41,455 bases of DNA from a virus. Lineage: Duplodnaviria > Heunggongvirae > Uroviricota > Caudoviricetes. The DNA lies in IMG/VR virus record IMGVR_UViG_2585427970_000004; one strand, 5' to 3'. The notes under the pieces are model-generated. The model saw only the letters and a list, made by a program, of their open reading frames with translations. It was not told the DNA's origin and did no database searches. The position numbers and the translations under genes were made by a program. How positions within the stretch are numbered: position 1 is the first letter of the stretch; every line of letters begins with the position of its first letter. Shown here in pieces: positions 1 through 41,455 of the stretch.

Positions 1-774
<774 letters not shown>

Positions 775-1314
775 GTCTTTAAGTGATAAGCATAAACCGC
801 AGCACGATCTTCTTGCATACGACGTGCTACGGTTTTATTTATCTCCGACCGGAAACTTCTTATACAGTGTCGATATACCAACATCATAGATGATCGCCAC
901 CTTCTGGCGAGGAACGCCTGATGCAATTAATCGCCCGGCCTACGCCCATTGTTCTGGTGTAAGTTTGGGACGACGTCCACCAATTCGTCCCTGTGCGCGA
1001 GCAGCTTCCAGTCCAGCTTTTGTTCGTTCAACAATCAGTTCTCGTTCCATTTCAGCCAGGGCACCCATCACATGAAAGAAAAAGCGCCCCATTGGGGTAC
1101 TGGTATCAATTGAATCCGTCAGACTACGAAAGTTGATGCCTCGTTCGCGCAACTCCTCCACCAGCACGACAAGATGCCGCATACTGCGCCCCAGTCGGTC
1201 CAGTTTCCAGACAACCAGAGTGTCACCTGCCGATAATGTCCTGAGCAGTTTTTTCAGTCCCGGCCTTTCGGACTTTGTACCGCTTATCTTGTCTTCAAAA
1301 ATCAGCTCGCATCC

Positions 1315-1339
1315 TGAACCGCCCCGGGTTTCCTGGAGA
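1315..1339. repeat. IS terminal inverted repeat (left)
   Basis: tgaaccgccccgggtttcctggaga; matches the reverse complement of 2600..2624 with 2 mismatches. Confidence 0.8.
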
Positions 1340-1356
1340 GTGTTTTATCTGTGAAC

Positions 1357-2247
1357 TCAGGCTGCCAGATCATCGTTTCCGATGGAAGCATAATAAGCTT
1401 TTTCTGCTTCTGCCGGAGGAGTATGGCCCAGCCTTTCCAGCAATCGTCGATTGTTATACCAGTCCACCCACGTGAGTGTGGCCAGTTCCACTTCTGCACG
1501 GTTTTTCCAGCTCTTACGGTGTATTACCTCCGCTTTGTAAAGACCATTGATGCTCTCCGCCATCGCGTTGTCATACGAGTCGCCTGTACTTCCTGTTGAT
1601 GCCAGTAATCCGGCTTCCTTAAGCCGCTGTGTGTAGGCCAGCGATACATACTGAGAACCTTTATCACTGTGATGGACCGTGCCGGACGGTCGACGGGCCC
1701 ATAACGCCTGCTCCAGTGCATCCAGCACGAATGTCGTTTCCATGGACGATGAGACCCGCCACCCCACGATGTATCCGGCAAACACATCAATGATGAACGC
1801 CACATAGACGAAGCCCCGCCATGTGCTGACGTAAGTAAAATCAGCCACCCACAGCTGGTCAGGTCGTTCTGCCACGAACTGACGGTTTACGCGGTCGCCT
1901 GCGGCAACGGCTTTCCGGCTGATGGTCGTACGGACCTTTTTACCCCGGAGAACACCGGCAAGTCCCATAACCGCCATGAGACGTGCCACAGTGCATCTGG
2001 CCACTCTGATACCTTCCCGTAACAACTGACGCCAGACTTTACGCACACCGTATACCTTGTGATTTTCATCGTATACGCGCTGTATCTCTTTCTTCAGCCA
2101 GTCATCGCGCTGCGCACGGGCACTGCGTTTATCCGGATGATGTCGCTGTTGCTGACAGTGGTAATACGTTGACGGGGCAATATGTAGTTCACTGCATACC
2201 GGTCCGACCCCGTACAGCTTACGCAGCTTATCCAGCAGTGGCATCAC
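1357..2247 (-). CDS. IS3-family transposase OrfB (DDE integrase core), probably expressed as an OrfAB frameshift fusion
   Basis: 296-aa ORF with DDE-type core ([11 protein letters not shown]...HSDKGSQY...[15 protein letters not shown]); overlaps OrfA in the -1 frame at an AAAAAG stretch (2247..2252 on the minus strand). Confidence 0.9.
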
Positions 2248-2570
2248 TTTTTCCAGAGGCGGTCGAACTCCGCCTTCGCAAAATAAGCGGAAGCCTGGCG
2301 AAGGATATCGTTACTGCGGCGCAGTTCACGATTTTCACGTTCCAGCTCTTTCAGACGCTGACGTTCAGCGGTGGTGAGCCCTCCATCACCGCCCCCGGTA
2401 TCCCGCTCATGCTGGCGAACCCAGACACGCAGAGTCTCCGGCGTACAGCCAATCTTTGGAGCAATGGAACAAATTGTCGCCCATTGTGAGTCATATTCGC
2501 TCTGACTTTCCAGAACCATACGGACTGCCCGTTGACGGACTTCGGGGGAAAAACGAGTATTTTTAGTCAT
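2244..2570 (-). CDS. IS3-family transposase OrfA (HTH)
   Basis: 108-aa [53 protein letters not shown]...; leucine-zipper-like C-terminus; recalled as IS629/IS1203-type OrfA. Confidence 0.9.
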
Positions 2571-2599
2571 CCTGTTTACCTCTTTCTCAGGAAGTTTAG

Positions 2600-2624
2600 T
2601 CTCCAGGATTCCCGGGGCGGTTCA
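2600..2624. repeat. IS terminal inverted repeat (right)
   Basis: tctccaggattcccggggcggttca; reverse complement of the left inverted repeat. Confidence 0.8.
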
Positions 2625-2728
2625 TCCTGCACAGTTCAGCGCATTACGTTGTAGATCTGTGTTCTGGTCATTTGTTGACACACGTACATAGCCAATAAGC
2701 ATGGTAGATCTCCCTGACAAAAGCAGGA

Positions 2729-3121
2729 ATGATGCCATTTGCTCGTTATTTCTGCATTTTCATAAACGTTGGTTTGGGAGAAGCGGCTAAAAGGAATGTA
2801 GGGACAGGGGCGAATCAGATACCTGATATGGGTAGCTTCACGCTTTCTGTTTCAGGTACTGGATATCAAAAATTACCATCAGGTTTTATTCTTCAGTGGG
2901 GCTCAATCGGCGCACCAGGCATTGCACAGGATGTAGTAACCCATTTCCCGATTGCATTTCCAAACAGATGTCTGCGTGTTTTGGTCTCACAAGACTACAC
3001 ACCAGATAGCGGGGCTGTTGGTTATATTGCCTGTGCAGGTTTTAGTCCCGACCCGGTTAAATTTATATCCAGAGCCAGTACTCCTGGCCTCGGCGCTTCA
3101 TTTTTAGCGTTAGGCTGTTAA
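2729..3121 (+). CDS. Alternative tail-fibre C-terminal variable segment (silent orientation; expressible only after inversion)
   Basis: Frame is continuous through the crossover site (…INVGLGEA… versus …ENLGLGEG… in the expressed fibre); the ATG at 2729 is probably read-through, functional segment about 2784..3121. Confidence 0.5.
2758..2783. other. gix/hix-like invertase crossover site (left boundary of the invertible tail-fibre segment)
   Basis: rc = CTTCTCCCAAACCAACGTTTATGAAA; shares 19 of its first 20 positions with 4633..4658; AAACC-N-GGTTT core resembles Gin/Hin recombination sites. Confidence 0.6.
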
Positions 3122-3142
3122 TTTAGCTATATGGAGTGAAAA

Positions 3143-3583
3143 ATGAATTACATATATTCCGCGACTACAAACTCTTTCTATCCGCTGGAGATGAAAGAGG
3201 ATTACACTCAAGCTGACTCATGGCCAGATGATGCTGTTGAAGTTGATGAGCAAGTGTATATTGAGTTTTCCGGATTACCGCCGAAAGGAAAAATCCGTAT
3301 CGCTGGAGAAAATGGTTTTCCTGCATGGTCTGAAATTCCACCACCAACATATGAGGAACAGATTGCTGCAGCCGAACTGGAAAAGCAGCAACTGATTAAT
3401 CAGGCCAACGATTATATGAACAGTAAACAATGGCCTGGTAAAGCGGCTATTGGTCGTCTGAAAGGTGAGGAACTGGCGCAATATAATTTGTGGCTGGATT
3501 ATCTGGACGCACTGGAGCTGGTCGATACTTCCGGTGCGCCAGATATTGAATGGCCTACGCCTCCGGCAGTTCAGGCCAGATGA
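3143..3583 (+). CDS. Tail-fibre assembly protein, alternative copy
   Basis: 146-aa ORF directly after the alternative fibre tip; C-terminal motif (LWLDYLDALELVDTSGAPDIEWPTPP) parallels that of the opposing copy (LNAVLDYIDAVTATDTSTVPDVIWPELP). Confidence 0.6.
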   Translation: MNYIYSATTNSFYPLEMKEDYTQADSWPDDAVEVDEQVYIEFSGLPPKGKIRIAGENGFPAWSEIPPPTYEEQIAAAELEKQQLINQANDYMNSKQWPGKAAIGRLKGEELAQYNLWLDYLDALELVDTSGAPDIEWPTPPAVQAR

Positions 3584-4157
3584 CATCCGGCACGGTGCTG
3601 GTATCTGTTGCCGTCACCGCGTCAATGTAATCCAGCACAGCGTTAAGGCGGGTTGTTTCTGCCTGCGTTAGTTTACGTCCGGCCTGCAATTTCAGCTGAA
3701 TCAGACTGATGGAGGCCATTGCAGTATCAATCAGCGACTGGCGCTGTGCTTCTGCTGCATCTACTGCTGCGCCGTGCTGTGCCTCGGTATCCGTCCCCCA
3801 TTTCTCACCATCCCATTTATCGTATGGCGTTAACGGGGCGATAGTGGTTGTATTATCAGGGTAATCACCCGGAGCTGTGATTTCTTTTGATTCCCCTGTT
3901 TCGGTGCTAAAAACGATTTCACCGCGATGGTCTGGCATATATTCCCATGATTTTAAATCTGCTGAACGGCAAATTGTATAACCAGCTTTATGTGTAACTG
4001 GTGCATCTAAACAAGAACATGCCGGGATACCGACGCCAACCGCAAGATATTCAGTTGATGTGGAAATATATTCCCGCGTTTCACCATCATAGTTATAAAC
4101 GGTAATATCCCCTGCCTTTGTAGCAACAAGTCCACTATTTAATATTGCTTTATCCAT
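3555..4157 (-). CDS. Tail-fibre assembly protein (expressed orientation)
   Basis: 200-aa ORF directly downstream of the fibre gene; convergent with its alternative copy. Confidence 0.65.
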   Translation of the reverse strand: MDKAILNSGLVATKAGDITVYNYDGETREYISTSTEYLAVGVGIPACSCLDAPVTHKAGYTICRSADLKSWEYMPDHRGEIVFSTETGESKEITAPGDYPDNTTTIAPLTPYDKWDGEKWGTDTEAQHGAAVDAAEAQRQSLIDTAMASISLIQLKLQAGRKLTQAETTRLNAVLDYIDAVTATDTSTVPDVIWPELPEA

Positions 4158-4936
4158 TATGCTGCTCTCACGATATAGTTAAATGCAATGTTTCTTGGTC
4201 TGTTCTCTGAGGCAGTTGGCACTACTCTTGAAGCATCAAAATTGACTAAATGAGGATTGTTTGGGGTATTTGGAATGATTGTGGTGTTACCTATCGTATT
4301 ACGAAGTGCTGATTGACTTACAAAAACACCACTCGCTGTATTAAAGCTAATAGCCGCATTAGCTTCGGTTTGTCCATTACCAAATGTGCCGGTTATATTA
4401 CGAATAGCATCCCCCTGAGCAGACAGAATTTCGCGCCCCGCGTCAATACCGCGCCCGTCATCCCAACCACGAATAAACTCACCACGTAAATCAGGCAATT
4501 TATTTGTTGGATAAGCCTTTGCCAGTTCCGGGTATTCTTCAGCAGAAAAAACCGCACCGTTGCATTTCAGCCAGCCTGTTGGCGGAGTGGCGGAAGGCCA
4601 CGGAACAGGGACACCAACAGGTAATGCAGAGCCTTCTCCCAAACCAAGGTTTTCGAGAGCCGTTGGTACTGTGCCGTCCGATTTGATATCACCAAACGGA
4701 TTCTTGCGGCTTAACAGCAGCGCACGAAGCGCGGTAAGCAGCTGGTCGTGCCGCGCCTTCTCGAGACTGGCACCGGATGCCTCTACAACGCTGCAAAGCT
4801 CCTCCTGCAACATGTCAAAGTAGTCATCATCCAGATCGGTGGCAGGCGTGCCAGTCTGGGGGTTACCACGGGTAAAACCGTTTTTACCCGCGCCGAACTT
4901 ATCCTTCTGCGCGGTTTTCGTGTCTATACGATGCAT
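4157..4936 (-). CDS. Tail-fibre protein (constant N-terminal part plus current variable C-terminal part)
   Basis: 259-aa ORF; N-terminal region [50 protein letters not shown] typical of Mu/e14-type fibres; contains the crossover site. Confidence 0.7.
4633..4658. other. gix/hix-like invertase crossover site (right boundary, inside the tail-fibre gene)
   Basis: cttctcccaaaccaaggttttcgaga; inverted relative to 2758..2783; encodes ENLGLGEG at the constant/variable junction of the fibre. Confidence 0.6.
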
Positions 4937-4939
4937 GGA

Positions 4940-5524
4940 TTACTCCGGATATTTAAAAATTACGTAGGTATGCGACGGGCAGAGTTTGTTAAGCACGCAC
5001 TCGACAACGGTGTCCCCCCAGATACGCAGTGCGGAATCACAGGGATCGCCACATGTCATCCAGGTGGTGTTGGTGGCGGCTGGCATGTTGACCTGCCAGT
5101 AATACCGCCATTCCGGCGCATTCACTGCATCAGTACAGGCCGATGAGCAGGTGAACGTGCTTTTATCGTATCGCGTGATGGTGGCGTCTGGTCTGCCCAG
5201 GGCAGCAAGCTGTGCAAGGTAAAAATCCTCATTGATGCCGCCCGCCAGATTAACCTTCGCATCCAGCCGTTGCTGACGCTGGCGAAGGGTCTGTGTCCCT
5301 GCGGGAATACATTCATCCGGCAGGCCGCACAGACGCTCCCAGCGATTTATCAGTTCGGTGGTGGTGCGCGGATCCAGCTCCCGCATCAGGGCATCTGCAC
5401 GCTGATGAACGCGGGTTAATGACGGTGCTGCACCGGCAATCGCCGGATCGCTGGCTGACCACGCCGGACCAGGGGGCAGCAGTGCCGACAACAGACGGAT
5501 GTAATCATCGTTTGTCACGTCCAT
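4940..5524 (-). CDS. Mu gp48-like tail protein (DUF2313/YmfQ-like)
   Basis: 194 aa; position between baseplate J and the tail fibre; sequence recalled as YmfQ-like. Confidence 0.55.
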
Positions 5525-6573
5525 GAAATCGTCCCCAGAACCGCCAGTTCATTTTTCGCAATGGTGATATTGTCCGCCGGGGCAAGCAACTGATGGCTGT
5601 ATTCCCCGTTCGCACCGGAAATCGCTTCACTGATACGCGATACCTTCAGCTCTCCCTGCGGATAACCATCACGCAGCAGGAATGAACGCAACTCCGCGGT
5701 GATGGCAGCCCGTATTTCCGGTGTGTCCGGCGTCACGTGGATATGAAAATCCACTTTATGCGCCACCGGCCTGAACACATACAAATCAGAGCCTGCCACC
5801 GGGGCCAGTGGCCCGATATGTTGCCTTGCCGCCGTTTCCGTTGATTCTTCCGGAATGGGATTAATCAGGTCACTGCTGGCAATCATCACACCGACAGTTC
5901 CCGTTCCCATCCAGTGACGGTATGTCCATGCGCGGGTAATGCCGGGCACTTCTTTAGCCCAGACGACATAGTCCCCGTCAGCCCCGCCCTGCGGCGTCCA
6001 GTAATACCGCTCAATGACGCGGGCGCGCCACGTTTCCAGATCTTCAGTATCGAATCCGCCAGTCAGGGTATCTGCCACACCGGAAGACGGCAGACCATTC
6101 ACCGGCGTGACCAGGATTAATGCCATACCGTCGTCAGCGTTACCGACCGCGCCTGCAGTTGAGCAGGCGATCGGCACGCGCAGGACACCACCGGAGCTGG
6201 TTGCATCAGAAGTTGCCGTGTACTGAACCAGGTCATCGCGCTGAATAACACTCCCGGCGGTCACCTTCAGGCCATCGCTGACACCTTCCCAGCGCATATA
6301 CCCGCTGGCAGACGTGGCCCCCTTGCGCGGACACCGTTTCATCGCAGCATGTCGCGCCAGCCAGGACACATCGCACAGGTCAGGCAGCATGTTCATTGCC
6401 AGATAATCGATGTAACCGTAAACCGTATGCAGCGCCGCCGCATACACCTTTGCCCGCACGTCTTCATCCATGCGCCGGAGCGTGTCGCTGACGTCCAGCC
6501 TGGCGAATAAATCGTTACGGAGCATACTGATATTTTCTGCCAGCGTCGGGCGCTGAAATTCACTGTCCGCCAT
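5515..6573 (-). CDS. Baseplate J-like protein (Mu gp47-like)
   Basis: 352 aa; conserved position in the Mu-like baseplate gene order. Confidence 0.65.
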
Positions 6574-27134: not shown

Positions 27135-27770
27135 TTACGGCACAAATGAATCTATAGCATCAAGCAACTCATTCACATTCGTATAACACCCAAGAAGAAA
27201 TGGTCTATTAGAATGAGGAGGAGCTGCATTTAAACTTTGTTTATTTAGTGCCTTCGCTCTTTGTCTGGCATAAGGAATACCAAGTCTAATTTTCTTATAC
27301 AACGTAGCATCGGCTTTATTATAATCCTTTATACCCACTGATAGTAAATCTTTTTTCAAAGTAGAGTTTTTCTTTAGATCATCAAAACTTGAGTAAGGTG
27401 TATTCTTAAATGCAAAGTGTTGTAAAATCCACAATTCAAAACAAACATTTGACAACGCAATATTAATATTGTTTGCATGGGCTAAATCCCATGCTTCATG
27501 GTGTAATGTGTGTGGGTATTTTGTGACAGCCTCTCTATCATATACAACCCAAAATTCATCATCATCCGATGTATCACCACTTTCCTTGTGTTTAATTGCA
27601 GCCTTTACTAAGGCTATTGGTGTGTTATATTTTATATCAGGGATATGTATAACTTTTGCTTTCTCACTAGCAAATTCATCGATATAACCCTGCAAGTACA
27701 TAGGTTCTGTTTTAGACCCTTCGCAAAAAATATGCATTCGTTTCTCTAATTTTCTCACGTTTTTTGCCAT
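27135..27770 (-). CDS. RloB-like (Toprim-like) protein, AbiLii-like
   Basis: 211 aa; N-terminal HIFCEGSKTEP and acidic FWVVYDRE motifs consistent with RloB/Toprim; AAGGTGA RBS; starts 6 nt after the ATPase stop; AT-rich. Confidence 0.65.
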   Translation of the reverse strand: MAKNVRKLEKRMHIFCEGSKTEPMYLQGYIDEFASEKAKVIHIPDIKYNTPIALVKAAIKHKESGDTSDDDEFWVVYDREAVTKYPHTLHHEAWDLAHANNINIALSNVCFELWILQHFAFKNTPYSSFDDLKKNSTLKKDLLSVGIKDYNKADATLYKKIRLGIPYARQRAKALNKQSLNAAPPHSNRPFLLGCYTNVNELLDAIDSFVP

Positions 27771-27776
27771 GATCTA

Positions 27777-29117
27777 TCACCTTAAATCTTCTGGAATATC
27801 ATCGATGTTACCAAATACTGTTAAATCAGTATCTTCAGGTTCACCACCTGTTACCCCAATGATAAAATCCTTTATTTTCATATAGTTAATTGATGGGACG
27901 CCACCAAAACGCCCTTCATCATACCACTTGTTAAAAGGTGAATTAGCCTTAACCTTTTCTTTATCAAACTCATCTAAACTATAAACTTCGGTTACACCTT
28001 TTTTCTTTTCAGTAAACCAAATCTGATCTCTTCTCATATTTTCTGATTTCATCAGCTCAATGTTATGAGTTGTAAATATGAGCTGAGAGCCTACTTTATT
28101 AACCTCACTATCGTTAAACAGTCTGATTAAAAGTGCAGCCAAATGTGGATGCATGCTGTGGTCTATTTCATCGATAATTAACACTCGATTTATTAAAAGA
28201 CCAGAAATTAGGGCAGGTGTTAATTCAAATAACCTACGGGTTCCTGCTGACTCATTTTCAATATCTATATCAGCACATTCTCCACCCTCCATGTCATGCT
28301 CAAATTTAAAGCTAAATCGATTTTCAGCCAAAATTCTTCGTTTCATATCTTCCGGCATTTCATCAGGTAGCTTAATATCTAGTTCTTTATTTTCGACAAT
28401 CCTTAGTTGGTTTATACCCGTATCAACCAATGATAAGAAGTTACCGGAAAAACGAATAAGCATGTCTCTAAATTTCTCATCCTCAAGATGAAGAGCATTA
28501 AAACTTGATTCCATTCCAATAGGACAAATTAACTGCGAAAAGTACTCATATACTTCCTTAGCAATCTCTGGAGCCTCAGCGACAGTGCCGATCTTTGATA
28601 GATAAGAGTTATTTTTAGAAAATGGAATTTTCTTTACTCCACCTTTGAATTGCGCCCCAAATTTAATATTCTCCCAACCATTATTCACACGATAGAACAA
28701 ATTCGATGGCTGCTTGGAGTAATAACAATCTAAACTCTCCAATATAATTTCTTTTTGAAGATAATGTATTTTATATTTAAATTTCAAATCATTGATCACA
28801 AAGTCAATTTCAAACTTTACTGGCTTTGAGATTGTTTTTTGACAAAGAGAATATGGTTCATAACAAGGGATATCCTCGCCATCTTTCAACGAAAAGCTAT
28901 CCTCAACAAGATAATTTAATGCAGAAAACACCTTTAGAAGGTTTGACTTCCCTGAAGCATTAGGACCATAAATTCCAACGGTACGTACAACCCGCTCATT
29001 GCTTTTGGGAAGAACAAGCAAATTATCGCTTAAGTGGTTACTTGTTGAACTACGCAGATCAAAGTTAACCTCTTCTTTGATCGACCTAAAATTCTCAACT
29101 TTTAAGGAAATTATCAT
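27777..29117 (-). CDS. ABC/AAA_21-type ATPase, AbiLi-like
   Basis: 446 aa; Walker A GPNASGKS (about aa 51-58), Walker B LIIDEID (about aa 313-319), TTHN H-loop-like motif; long helical insert between them as in OLD/AbiL-type ATPases; AT-rich. Confidence 0.7.
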   Translation of the reverse strand: MIISLKVENFRSIKEEVNFDLRSSTSNHLSDNLLVLPKSNERVVRTVGIYGPNASGKSNLLKVFSALNYLVEDSFSLKDGEDIPCYEPYSLCQKTISKPVKFEIDFVINDLKFKYKIHYLQKEIILESLDCYYSKQPSNLFYRVNNGWENIKFGAQFKGGVKKIPFSKNNSYLSKIGTVAEAPEIAKEVYEYFSQLICPIGMESSFNALHLEDEKFRDMLIRFSGNFLSLVDTGINQLRIVENKELDIKLPDEMPEDMKRRILAENRFSFKFEHDMEGGECADIDIENESAGTRRLFELTPALISGLLINRVLIIDEIDHSMHPHLAALLIRLFNDSEVNKVGSQLIFTTHNIELMKSENMRRDQIWFTEKKKGVTEVYSLDEFDKEKVKANSPFNKWYDEGRFGGVPSINYMKIKDFIIGVTGGEPEDTDLTVFGNIDDIPEDLR

Positions 29118-33743: not shown

Positions 33744-33920
33744 ATGGAGTTCTTAATTACTATTTTATCCATAATAGCTGTTGTGATACCTGCTGTATTG
33801 GCATGGTTTTCAAGAAAAAACCTCAAAAATGCACAGGAAACTTTAATTCACATAGAAAGGATCAGAAAATCAAACAGCGATGACTTTGAAAGAAAGAAAG
33901 AACAACTTAAATATCACTAA
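33744..33920 (+). CDS. Small single-TM protein (58 aa), below the ORF-track threshold
   Basis: AGGAG RBS 6 nt upstream of ATG 33744; MEFLITILSIIAVVIPAVLAWFSRKNLKNAQETLIHIERIRKSNSDDFERKKEQLKYH. Confidence 0.4.
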   Translation: MEFLITILSIIAVVIPAVLAWFSRKNLKNAQETLIHIERIRKSNSDDFERKKEQLKYH

Positions 33921-34830
33921 TGGAATTGGTATGCAGTTAAAAAATATCATTTATATTGATTATGAGAAGGTCTACTCTTTAAGCTCTCAATTATTTGAGG
34001 GCGTAATTCAATCCGCGATGGAGCATAAAGAGTCTACTCTTTCAAATATAGATGCAGTCGAAATTAAGACAAAAAGTAGTTCAAGTAAAACGAGTGACAC
34101 AAAAAAATTATCAACAGTGTTAAACCCTCATGATTACCATTATCTGAAATTTGAAAACGAACTTAGCAATAGAGGAATTCTATCTAACATAACTTCCCCG
34201 ATCGACTCGAACAAAATTAAGGCTAATTGCTTTGTTAAAATCACCTGCCCTATTCAATTTAATGACTATAGTAAATTAAAAAATACCGCGAAGGATTTTT
34301 GTAAAATTCACTATGCTATTAATTTCGTTCATCGAAATGGTGAATTAGAAAACCTAGAATCGATGCTGAAATCGATAAAACCCAAATCCAATGAATTTAA
34401 TATTATCAAGGCAAGACAAGCACAAATCAAAAGTGAGCTTGATAATTTAACTTCTCCAAATAAGAAAAAGTTTCTTGAGCATCTGTCTTCTGTTTTAGAT
34501 TACGCATATGGTGACGAAATAGAAATATCACAAAAAATGCAAGATATTAAATTCACCTCATTCTTAATCAGAGATTTTCTTAAAATCAGCCCAGAAATGT
34601 TTGTAAAGTTATATTCTCGTCGAACGACCTCTGCATTCACTGTCGTAGGGATGATAACGCGTACATCAACGTCTGAAGGCGATCAGGAATCAGAGGCTCG
34701 TGAACTAAGCGGCATTCGCAGTGCGGTCTGGAATATGAATGACAGCCTTTTTGATCTGGAGTCAACATTTTGTGCCCCTGACTCTGATGAATATTTCATT
34801 GAGCCTATTGCTGTTTACAATGAGCTATAA
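33880..34830 (+). CDS. Hypothetical soluble protein (~300-316 aa), third gene of the rex-slot cassette
   Basis: ORF from ATG 33880 overlaps the 58-aa ORF by 41 nt; alternative start ATG 33931 lies 10 nt after that ORF's stop; no motif I can assign; AT-rich; followed by a terminator. Confidence 0.55.
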   Translation: MTLKERKNNLNITNGIGMQLKNIIYIDYEKVYSLSSQLFEGVIQSAMEHKESTLSNIDAVEIKTKSSSSKTSDTKKLSTVLNPHDYHYLKFENELSNRGILSNITSPIDSNKIKANCFVKITCPIQFNDYSKLKNTAKDFCKIHYAINFVHRNGELENLESMLKSIKPKSNEFNIIKARQAQIKSELDNLTSPNKKKFLEHLSSVLDYAYGDEIEISQKMQDIKFTSFLIRDFLKISPEMFVKLYSRRTTSAFTVVGMITRTSTSEGDQESEARELSGIRSAVWNMNDSLFDLESTFCAPDSDEYFIEPIAVYNEL

Positions 34831-38635: not shown

Positions 38636-38957
38636 GGCCTGTCAGTTTCTTAAGATATCCAGACCAACCGCCACCAACTGGATACGAACAGGCCGCCTAC
38701 AGGCAACACGTAAAGATCCAACCAAGCCAAAATCTCCTTACCTCACAACACGGCAAGCCTGCATTGCGGCGCTTCAGTCTCCGCTGCATACTGTCCAGGT
38801 GAGCGCGGGTGATGGCATAACAGAGGAAAGAAAATGTCACTCTTCCGCAGAAGTGAAATATGGTACGCCAGTTTCACATTGCCGAACGGTAAAAGATTTA
38901 AACAGTCTCTTGGAACAAAGGACAAAAGGCAGGCGACAGAGCTCCATGACAAGCTAA
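38607..38957 (+). CDS. Excisionase-like HTH protein
   Basis: ATG 38607 with GAGGT RBS; [34 protein letters not shown]; immediately upstream of and overlapping int. Confidence 0.5.
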
Positions 38958-39997
38958 AGGCTGAAGCATGGCGGGTCAGCAAACTTGGTGAAATACCTGA
39001 TATAACGTTCGAGGAAGCGTGTGTCAGGTGGCTTGAAGAGAAAGCACATAAAAAATCACTGGACGATGACAAAAGCCGGATCGGATTCTGGCTTCAACAT
39101 TTCGCAGGAATGCAACTAAGAGACATTACTGAATCAAAAATTTATTCAGCAATGCAGAAAATGACGAACCGGCGTCATGAGGAAAACTGGAGACTCAGGG
39201 CAGAAGCATGCAGAAAAAAAGGGAAACCTGTTCCAGAATACACGCCAAAACCAGCGTCCGTTGCAACGAAGGCTACGCATCTTTCATTTATAAAGGCCCT
39301 ACTAAGAGCCGCAGAGCGTGAATGGAAAATGCTGGATAAGGCACCAATTATTAAAGTGCCTCAACCAAAGAATAAACGGATCCGCTGGCTGGAGCCCCAT
39401 GAAGCACAAAGGCTGATTGATGAATGTCCGGAGCCATTAAAGTCTGTTGTTGAATTTGCACTGGCAACAGGCTTAAGACGCTCGAACATCATCAACCTTG
39501 AATGGCAACAAATAGACATGCAGCGCCGGGTGGCATGGATAAACCCGGAAGAGAGTAAATCAAACCGCGCAATTGGCGTTGCGCTGAATGATACTGCATG
39601 TCGCGTTTTGAAAAAACAAATCGGGAATCATCACCGTTGGGTATTTGTGTACAAGGAAAGCTGTACCAAACCAGACGGAACGAAAGCGCCAACAGTAAGG
39701 AAGATGCGGTATGACGCAAACACAGCCTGGAAAGCGGCGCTGAGACGGGCTGGTATTGATGATTTCAGATTTCACGACTTGAGACACACCTGGGCAAGTT
39801 GGCTGGTTCAAGCCGGAGTCCCGTTGTCAGTGTTACAGGAAATGGGAGGCTGGGAGTCTATCGAAATGGTTCGTCGATATGCTCACCTTGCACCTAATCA
39901 CCTTACCGAACACGCACGGCAAATAGACTCGATCCTGAACCCATCGGTCCCAAATTCGTCCCAGTCAAAAAATAAGGAAGGTACTAATGATGTGTAA
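38834..39997 (+). CDS. int: Tyrosine integrase (tRNA-Thr site-specific, IntF-like)
   Basis: 387 aa; C-terminal catalytic motifs (…[42 protein letters not shown]…); ends 15 nt before the tRNA 3' end. Confidence 0.9.
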
Positions 39998-40011: not shown

Positions 40012-40087
40012 TGGTGCCGATAATAGGAGTCGAACCTACGACCTTCGCATTACGAATGCGCTGCTCTACCAACTGAGCTATATCGGC
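40012..40087 (-). tRNA. thrW: tRNA-Thr (anticodon CGU), thrW-like; prophage integration target
   Basis: rc = GCCGATATAGCTCAGTTGGTAGAGCAGCGCATTCGTAATGCGAAGGTCGTAGGTTCGACTCCTATTATCGGCACCA; cloverleaf with anticodon loop TTCGTAA, TPsiC-loop TTCGACT, 3' CCA. Confidence 0.9.
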
Positions 40088-40201: not shown

Positions 40202-41455
40202 TTACGCACGAATGGTGTAATCACCAATGCCGATCCACTTGTAAGTGGTCAGTGCTTCCAGCCCCATTGGGCCACGCGCGTGGAGTTTTTGTGTGCTTAC
40301 CGCCACTTCCGCACCCAGACCAAACTGGCCGCCGTCGGTAAAACGCGTAGAGGCGTTAACGTAAACAGCGGACGAATCCACTTCGTTAACAAAACGCTGG
40401 GCGTTGCGCATATCGCGGGTCAGGATCGCATCGGAGTGTTGTGTGCCGTGTTCACGAATATGGGCGATGGCATCGTCAAGATCGCTGACGATTTTGACGT
40501 TCAAATCTAATGACAGAAACTCATCGTCATACTCTTCGGCTTTAACAGCAACCACCTTCGCAGGGCCTGCCTGCAACTGCGCCAGTGCAGCTGCATCTGC
40601 GTGTAATGTCACGCCGCTTTCCGCCATTTGTTTGCTTAATGCGGGCAGGAAGCTATCGGCGATGTTTTTATTCACCAGCAACGTTTCAACCGTATTACAT
40701 GTGCTCGGACGCTGAGTTTTCGCGTTGACGATCACTTTTAATGCTTCAGCGATCTCTACACTTTCATCAACGTAAATATGGCATACGCCTATACCACCTG
40801 TGATCACCGGGATTGTCGACTGTTCACGGCACAGTTTATGCAAACCAGCGCCACCACGCGGGATCAGCATGTCGATGTATTTATCCATACGCAGCATTTC
40901 ACTGACCAGCGCACGGTCAGGATTATCAATCGCCTGCACGGCACCCGCCGGTAAGCCGCAGGATTTCAGGGCGTCCTGAATCACCGCCACCGTTGCAGCG
41001 TTAGTGCGACACGTTTCTTTGCCACCGCGCAGGATCACCGCATTACCGGTTTTCAGGCACAGCGAAGCGACATCAACCGTCACGTTCGGGCGCGCTTCAT
41101 AAATCACGCCAATAACCCCCAGCGGTACGCGACGACGCTCAAGACGCAGGCCGCTGTCCAGTACGCCGCCATCGATTACCTGCCCCACCGGATCGGCGAG
41201 GTTGCACACCTGACGTACATCGTCGGCAATGCCTTTCAGCCGTGCGGGCGTCAGTGCCAGACGGTCAAGCATCGCTTCGCTAAGGCCATTGGCTCGCGCG
41301 TCAGCAACATCCTGGGCGTTAGCGTTGAGGATGATTTCGCTTTGTGCTTCCAGTTCATCGGCGATTTTTTCCAGCACGCGATTTTTTTCGCGGCTGGAGA
41401 GTTGCGCTAATTTATACGAGGCTTGCTTCGCGGCAATGCCCATTTGTTCCAGCAT
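40202..41455 (-). CDS. proA: Gamma-glutamyl phosphate reductase ProA (host gene)
   Basis: 417 aa; [66 protein letters not shown]…; start coincides with the window end. Confidence 0.95.

Follow-up and report, generated by a model that had tools for sequence, protein, structure and literature searches.

The window analysed here is the whole 41,455-nucleotide (nt) stretch of IMG/VR record IMGVR_UViG_2585427970_000004, a Caudoviricetes virus. Towards its left end it carries a tail-fibre gene, an alternative fibre tip, two assembly-chaperone genes and a broken pin invertase gene, arranged in and around a segment bounded by two inverted crossover sites (Table 1). On the minus strand, a Baseplate_J gene (5515-6573) and a Mu Gp48/YmfQ-like gene (4940-5524) precede the expressed fibre gene. 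The constant part of this gene, Sc, is located outside the segment and shares 96% identity with the N-terminus of StfP of Escherichia coli K-12. This similarity stops exactly at ENLGLGEG, the motif that the right-hand (fibre-gene) crossover site encodes within the 259-amino-acid (aa) fibre on the minus strand. The gene then runs into the segment, where it encodes the variable tip, Sv, and is followed by the chaperone gene for that tip, annotated tfaE in related genomes.

A second tip/chaperone pair faces the first. Its tip, Sv', is silent in the present orientation and is spanned by a 130-aa open reading frame (ORF) with an ATG start and a 13-codon leader outside the segment. The left-hand (pin-proximal) crossover site codes for ...INVGLGEA..., in frame with this gp53-like C-terminal tip, and the gene for the second chaperone, Tfa', comes next. 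The two convergent chaperone genes overlap by 29 base pairs (bp) at their 3' ends (3555-3583). The locus therefore has the layout of a host-range cassette, with a constant N-terminus outside, two convergent tip/chaperone pairs inside and both possible fusions in frame. An earlier, sequence-only reading of this DNA had placed the right site in the expressed fibre gene at the ENLGLGEG junction, and the left site in frame at the 5' end of an alternative C-terminal segment (INVGLGEA) followed by a second assembly gene. Both coding contexts are borne out, as are the two convergent fibre-tip/chaperone pairs that it described, in which a Collar domain, a Gp53-like_C domain and two Caudo_TAP domains were found.

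Table 1. Features of the fibre-switch locus and the adjoining invertase gene, in window coordinates
Feature	Position	Strand	Evidence or detail
Invertible segment	2770..4646		1877 bp from core centre to core centre
Expressed tail-fibre gene, 259 aa	4157..4936	-	Pfam Phage Tail Collar 1.8e-15
Constant part Sc, about 100 aa (approximately aa 1-97)	4936-4647	-	Outside the segment
Variable tip Sv	4646-4157	-	Phage Tail Collar domain; resembles K-12 StfP2/StfE
TfaE-like assembly chaperone for the expressed tip, 200 aa	3555..4157	-	Pfam Caudo_TAP 1.1e-31
Second assembly chaperone Tfa', 146 aa	3143..3583	+	Pfam Caudo_TAP 4.8e-37; silent in present orientation
Alternative tip Sv' within 130-aa ORF	2729..3121	+	Pfam Gp53-like_C 4.3e-15; exon proper 2771-3121
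Pin-proximal crossover site, pix-type	2757..2782		TTTTCATAAACG-TT-GGTTTGGGAGAA; core dinucleotide 2769-2770
Fibre-gene crossover site	4634..4659		TTCTCCCAAACC-AA-GGTTTTCGAGAG; core 4646-4647; minus strand encodes ENLGLGE
pin 5' fragment, codons 1-26	2625..2702	-	tblastn with PinE aa 1-26, 100%
pin 3' fragment, codons 26-184	835..1314	-	Pfam Resolvase 4.5e-42; tblastn with aa 25-184, 95%
IS3-family insertion sequence, 1310 bp, interrupting pin	1315..2624	-	Two transposase ORFs (Pfam HTH_Tnp_1, rve)

An inverted-repeat search returned arms of 20 nt at 2764-2783 and 4633-4652, complementary at 19 of 20 positions (95%). Set in the canonical 12+2+12 layout of invertase sites, the register used throughout, they form two 26-bp imperfect palindromes in inverted orientation whose cores are the same dinucleotide (AA/TT), the arrangement found in the Gin/Hin/Cin/Pin systems. 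The half-sites that lie inside the segment are identical (12/12), and the outer half-sites agree at 7 of 12 positions. The earlier boxes, 26 bp each at 2758-2783 and 4633-4658, captured the right sites with the register one base off. Similarly, the arms of the core proposed at that time, AAACC-N-GGTTT, stand, while its single N becomes a dinucleotide, giving AAACC-NN-GGTTT.

Chance is a poor explanation for such a pair. With up to 3 mismatches allowed, the 20-nt site pattern occurs at these two places only in 41,455 bases, against an expectation of 0.01, and none of 100 shuffled sequences produced two matches. Using a half-site weight matrix, the two sites score 31.7 and 27.8 and the next best 26-mer in the window 13.9; the matrix was built from gix, cix and pix, and the inclusion of pix makes this test partly circular. 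Alignment with gix, cix and pix upholds the Gin/Hin-type resemblance claimed from sequence. In the annotated records, gix of Mu and cix of P1 are laid out as the window sites are, and P1 also has a TT/AA core. In fact, each window site agrees at 26/26 positions with one of the two crossover sites that bound the K-12 e14 P segment: the pin-proximal site with the one adjoining pinE (L007 5606-5631, reverse complement) and the fibre-gene site with the one within stfP (L007 3779-3804, reverse complement). The identity takes in the non-coding outer half of the pin-proximal site. We sought further crossover sites in the window, as in a multi-site system of the Min/p15B type, and found none beyond the two. 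A shufflon (Rci, with multiple 19-bp sfx sites) was ruled out, with two sites only in the window and an adjacent recombinase of the serine resolvase type.

Simulation of the inversion and comparison with related prophages provide the second line of evidence. Flipping 2770-4646 in silico joins Sc in frame to the second tip in an uninterrupted 213-aa ORF. This predicted fusion corresponds to an annotated protein of E. coli STK39-3-E (L002; 213/214 aligned positions), a strain whose pinE is intact. In 382 complete E. coli genomes, sequence runs unbroken across the simulated Sc-Sv' junction, with a best match of 99.0% over 900 bp. When the four-gene cassette is required at a query coverage of at least 80%, 24 genomes carry it in the window orientation and 14 in the simulated inverted orientation. 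BLAST alignments of L002 and L006 with the window show collinear flanks and a reversed segment, and the alignment overlap is confined to the 20-nt repeat at either end, which places the breakpoints inside the repeat.

The clearest pair is formed by L016 and L018, two assemblies in which one and the same prophage occupies the same position in the chromosome, with a shared dusA-type/integrase/dinI flank. Between them a 1879-bp segment is 99.84% identical and collinear, and both flanks are exchanged and inverted; in L018 the segment is likewise inverted relative to both flanks. Both orientations are thus present in the cassette family, in L002, in L006 and between L016 and L018, and the exact Tfa' protein recurs in cassettes of both orientations. 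We note that invertible cassettes located behind a different Mu-like baseplate (L012, L013, 4344-7125) and behind a P2-type baseplate (L014 4020-7153) also encode a chaperone identical to Tfa'; in L014 the fibre is longer, at 319 aa, and has a Phage_tail_fib N-terminus. Because the identical chaperone stands behind both Mu-like and P2-type baseplates, the cassette moves between myovirus tail modules.

These comparisons also bear on the simplest objection to a switch, namely that the two tips merely share a conserved LGLGE coding motif and that no recombination takes place. The repeat does lie in coding sequence, and its identical inner arms both encode GLGE. However, a coding motif gives no account of the 26/26 identity to proven e14 sites across a non-coding half-site, of a chance expectation of 0.01, of related prophages that differ by inversion of exactly this segment with breakpoints in the repeat, or of the serine invertase gene next door; we give this explanation next to no credence. 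An incidental repeat had been named in advance as an outcome that would overturn the switch, and the e14 site identity together with inversions that break within the repeat contradict it.

In K-12, the e14 segment inverts in growing cultures (PMC4272514), and this inversion depends on PinE and PinQ, with pinE and pinE pinQ mutants being locked (PMC12529663). In the window, the corresponding mechanism would start from late minus-strand transcription reading from the baseplate genes into the fibre gene, of which the first ~100 codons (Sc) are outside the segment and the tip, like its matching chaperone, is inside. A crossover at the AA/TT centres of the two inverted 26-bp sites would turn over 1877 bp and join Sc in frame, inside the common LGLGE codons, to the gp53-like tip, and the chaperone belonging to that tip would then follow. 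Such a tip exchange would alter the receptor-binding end of the fibre. By analogy with the family, each site would be bound by Pin dimers, Fis would occupy the enhancer, and the strands would be cut with a 2-nt stagger and rotated by 180 degrees. The earlier interpretation of the locus as a classic host-range switch of the Mu G, P1 C and e14 P type is thus supported by the e14 site identity, the in-frame 213-aa fusion and the two orientations in relatives.

The invertase gene of the window is, by comparison, in poor condition. On the minus strand, pin starts at 2702 and reads away from the segment, and after 78 nt (codon 26) it is entered by an IS3-family insertion sequence (IS). The IS has 25-nt terminal inverted repeats and is flanked by a 3-bp target duplication, TCC, at 1312-1314 and 2625-2627. 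Copies that are 100% identical, annotated 'IS3 family transposase', occur on numerous E. coli chromosomes and plasmids, and an 'AL1L pseudoknot' frameshift element is marked in them by RefSeq. Once the IS and one of the duplicated TCC triplets are taken out, the reconstructed pin reads as PinE, with 34 of 555 nt differing from K-12 pinE. One of the differences turns codon 150, CAA in K-12 pinE, into an amber TAG (window 942-940). This second, independent lesion would remove the C-terminal helix-turn-helix (HTH) DNA-binding domain. The recombinase gene next to the segment is therefore homologous to pin but non-functional, split by an IS and stopped ahead of its HTH, whereas the sister prophages L020 and L011, in which the neighbouring genes are the same, lack the IS and have an intact 184-aa invertase. 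No second invertase was found within the window. Another locked copy occurs in E. coli strain E14 (L001 3967-4080, CP121149), where the invertase is reduced to a 114-nt fragment adjoining an AAA ATPase gene; the segment there is 99.8% identical to that of the window and has the same orientation.

Analysis of the insertion point suggests that the IS may have affected more than the coding sequence. In the P1 GenBank record, nt 19-90 of cin are annotated as the enhancer for inversion by Cin, a region over which the DNA of pin, gin and cin hardly differs. A degenerate Fis consensus, KNNYRNNWNNYRNNM, matches all three genes at nt 23-37 and nt 71-85, inside the region homologous to the annotated P1 enhancer. 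These two matches are 48 bp apart. A 48-bp spacing of the Fis sites in the Hin enhancer was reportedly described by Johnson, Glasgow and Simon in 1987. In the window, the proximal match spans 2666-2680, and 2625-2632 holds the first half of the distal match. The centre of the first match lies 96.5 bp from the left-site core; for comparison, hin contains in its 5' end an enhancer with two Fis sites, ~100 bp from the near site (PMC3798978). The target duplication of the IS corresponds to pin nt 76-78 and falls precisely at the middle of the second match. Consequently, 1.3 kb now separates the two halves of the distal match, and five of the seven bases that followed have given way to the IS terminus. 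The cis enhancer would thus probably be impaired by the IS.

Taken together, the anatomy, the site identity and the occurrence of both orientations in related prophages identify an e14-type, Pin-dependent P segment, of which the window copy is most likely frozen; we put the probability of this reading at roughly 0.85. The switch is most likely frozen because pin is split by the IS and interrupted by an amber codon, and because the IS sits at the centre of the distal presumed Fis site. The cassette would most likely be fixed with the Collar-domain tip expressed, the equivalent of the K-12 'inverted' StfP2/StfE2 state.

Several observations weigh against parts of this reading. Three assemblies with the identical fibre protein (L003-L005) are all in one orientation, in a sample biased by having been found via the protein of that orientation. 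The Fis matches rest on a degenerate consensus, expected at about 1 in 128 positions by chance, and draw their support from conservation and from the P1 annotation. The proximal match and 8 of the 15 bp of the distal one still adjoin the crossover site. Finally, PinQ, another E. coli invertase, flips the e14 segment in trans (PMC12529663).

The last two points would favour a switch that still operates, driven in trans by a Pin-family invertase elsewhere in the chromosome (PinQ/PinR-type, from another prophage) with the remaining enhancer or with none. Both 26-bp sites are intact and identical to the functional e14 sites, the inverting PinQ is itself encoded by a separate prophage, Qin, and the surviving Fis sequence is next to the left site. 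Such rescue would have to contend, however, with a distal Fis site split by 1310 bp and with the absence of a second invertase within the window, and wild-type Hin without Fis performs <0.001 inversions per molecule per minute (PMC3798978). We regard an operating switch as unlikely, though still to be reckoned with. For the same reason, supplying a functional Gin or Pin in trans, the check proposed in the sequence-only reading, may give little inversion, because the insertion in pin falls within the presumed Fis enhancer as well and divides it.

Textbooks have covered the tail-fibre inversion switches of e14, Mu and P1 since the 1980s, and the Pin-type invertible tail-fibre system (Pin/e14, Gin/Mu, Cin/P1) is already known. 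The closest counterpart is the e14 P segment with PinE (stfP-tfaP-tfaE-stfE-pinE), which shares with the window both 26-bp crossover sites and the order of a ymfQ-like gene, Sc, two convergent tip/chaperone pairs and a pin gene reading away from the segment. Even the 29-bp overlap of the chaperone genes is the same (tfaP/tfaE, L007 4518-4546), and the TfaE-like module is 88-90% identical in DNA. In contrast, the second tip is 27% identical to StfP, with no DNA match to e14 over window 2784-3405; the nearest K-12 DNA match of the second tip/chaperone module is the gp53-like/yfdK region of CPS-53. By the same measure, the segment is 1877 bp long in the window and 1827 bp in K-12 e14. The window also differs from e14 in the inactivation of its pin by the IS and amber codon, in being a full-length prophage at thrW/proA and not at icd, and in having a GIY-YIG gene where e14 has mcrA.

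The more distant systems share the principle and differ in detail. In Mu G, as in the window, Sc lies outside, convergent S/U and S'/U' pairs lie inside, the 26-bp sites are centred on AAACC-NN-GGTTT, the invertase adjoins the segment and reads away from it, baseplate genes of the Mu type (gp44-48) lie upstream, and the Fis-consensus matches fall at the same codons of gin. However, the G segment is ~3 kb with much longer fibres, its tips show no sequence relationship to those of the window, gix has a GA/TC core instead of AA/TT, Gin is intact and Mu is a transposing phage. The P1 C segment has the TT/AA core, an inner half-site TTCTCTTAAACC (compared with TTCTCCCAAACC in the window), an enhancer homologous to the pin region and a Cin 83% identical to the reconstructed Pin. 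It differs in its 4.2-kb length, in the virion backbone and in the placement of cin, whose 3' end is toward cixL, with the enhancer about 0.5 kb from the site. The Salmonella H segment shares the invertase family and the 26-bp sites, but Hin flips a promoter together with hin itself and switches flagellins, whereas in the window the invertase lies outside and a coding 3' end is swapped.

The orientation of the segment raises the question of what the frozen state would express. Relative to the K-12 reference, the window segment is in the opposite orientation. Reconstruction of the K-12 inverted state reproduces StfP2 (262 aa) and StfE2 (125 aa, with a gp53-like domain at 47-125) as described in PMC12529663. 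The 259-aa window fibre corresponds to StfP2, and ORF 2729-3121, which combines a leader near-identical to that of K-12 stfE with a gp53-like tip, has the StfE2 architecture.

This architecture, together with the finding that plasmid-borne overproduction of StfE2 in K-12 blocks the adsorption of T2 (PMC12529663) and with the second locked copy of the same orientation and with a truncated invertase in L001, could be taken to mean that the frozen state benefits the host, a constitutive StfE2-like product of ORF 2729-3121 blocking adsorption of other phages and the loss of pin being adaptive rather than decay. We consider this improbable. The tip is just 27% identical to the K-12 StfP/StfE2 tip, and the K-12 anti-adsorption result depends on plasmid overproduction. 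We found no sigma-70-like promoter for the silent tip upstream of 2729 on the plus strand, in a scan that is uninformative in that its overall counts equal the shuffled expectation. An IS insertion plus a nonsense mutation is ordinary prophage decay, and two locked copies are not statistics. At the same low level of confidence stands the fuller version of the idea, in which the IS, by hitting pin and the distal Fis site together, would have frozen the switch in cis and in trans in the StfE2-yielding orientation, and ORF 2729-3121 would serve as a constitutive superinfection-exclusion factor, a domesticated, locked-on derivative of the switch. The frozen e14-type segment remains our preferred reading of the locus.

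Analysis of the surrounding sequence shows that the switch belongs to a complete prophage at thrW in E. coli, which carries an e14-type tail end. The window matches a 4.74-Mb contig of assembly GCA_000714975.1 at 100% identity. Towards its right end lie a tyrosine integrase gene (38834-39997), tRNA-Thr(CGT) thrW (40012-40087) and proA (40202-41455, the right end of the window); the tRNA gene and proA are both 100% identical to E. coli. The early genes are lambdoid (O, P, a CI-like repressor, RecT), and the tail is Mu-like and contractile. We considered whether the window is e14 itself at icd and rejected this, as Pfam, tRNA and BLAST checks give thrW/proA and no mcrA lies beside pin.

Phage vB_EcoM-689R6 (L009, ON470584) was considered as a free-living relative and proved unusable, its record being without an invertible segment between fibre and invertase. 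This record (L009 1-2309) starts at an invertase 95.7% identical to Pin, continues with mcrA and a truncated 'side tail fiber' gene, and runs into icd and host genes; it looks like the assembly of a prophage region whose segment was collapsed or lost.

Some further genes of the window deserve mention. Just beyond pin, window 1-774 encodes a 257-aa protein with a LEM-3-like GIY-YIG nuclease domain, a possible cargo or defence gene; the same gene also adjoins the intact invertase in L011 and L020. In the early region, an adjacent pair encoding an AAA_21 ATPase (446 aa) and an RloB-like protein (211 aa) at 27135-29117 resembles an accessory anti-phage or abortive-infection module. A DUF6414 protein is encoded at 33880-34830.

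In sum, these results add little to general biology. All that sets this copy apart is that its pin has two inactivating lesions, that the IS has probably cost it the enhancer as well, that the prophage is integrated at a site other than that of e14, and that the second tip is a variant one. In the window copy, one IS disables the recombinase and, probably, the cis enhancer. The value of the analysis lies in annotation: a 259-aa 'phage tail protein' and a 130-aa 'gp53-like' ORF are halves of one switch and not independent genes. This is useful for predicting the host range of prophages and for weighing recent claims that the orientation of the P segment affects phage defence.

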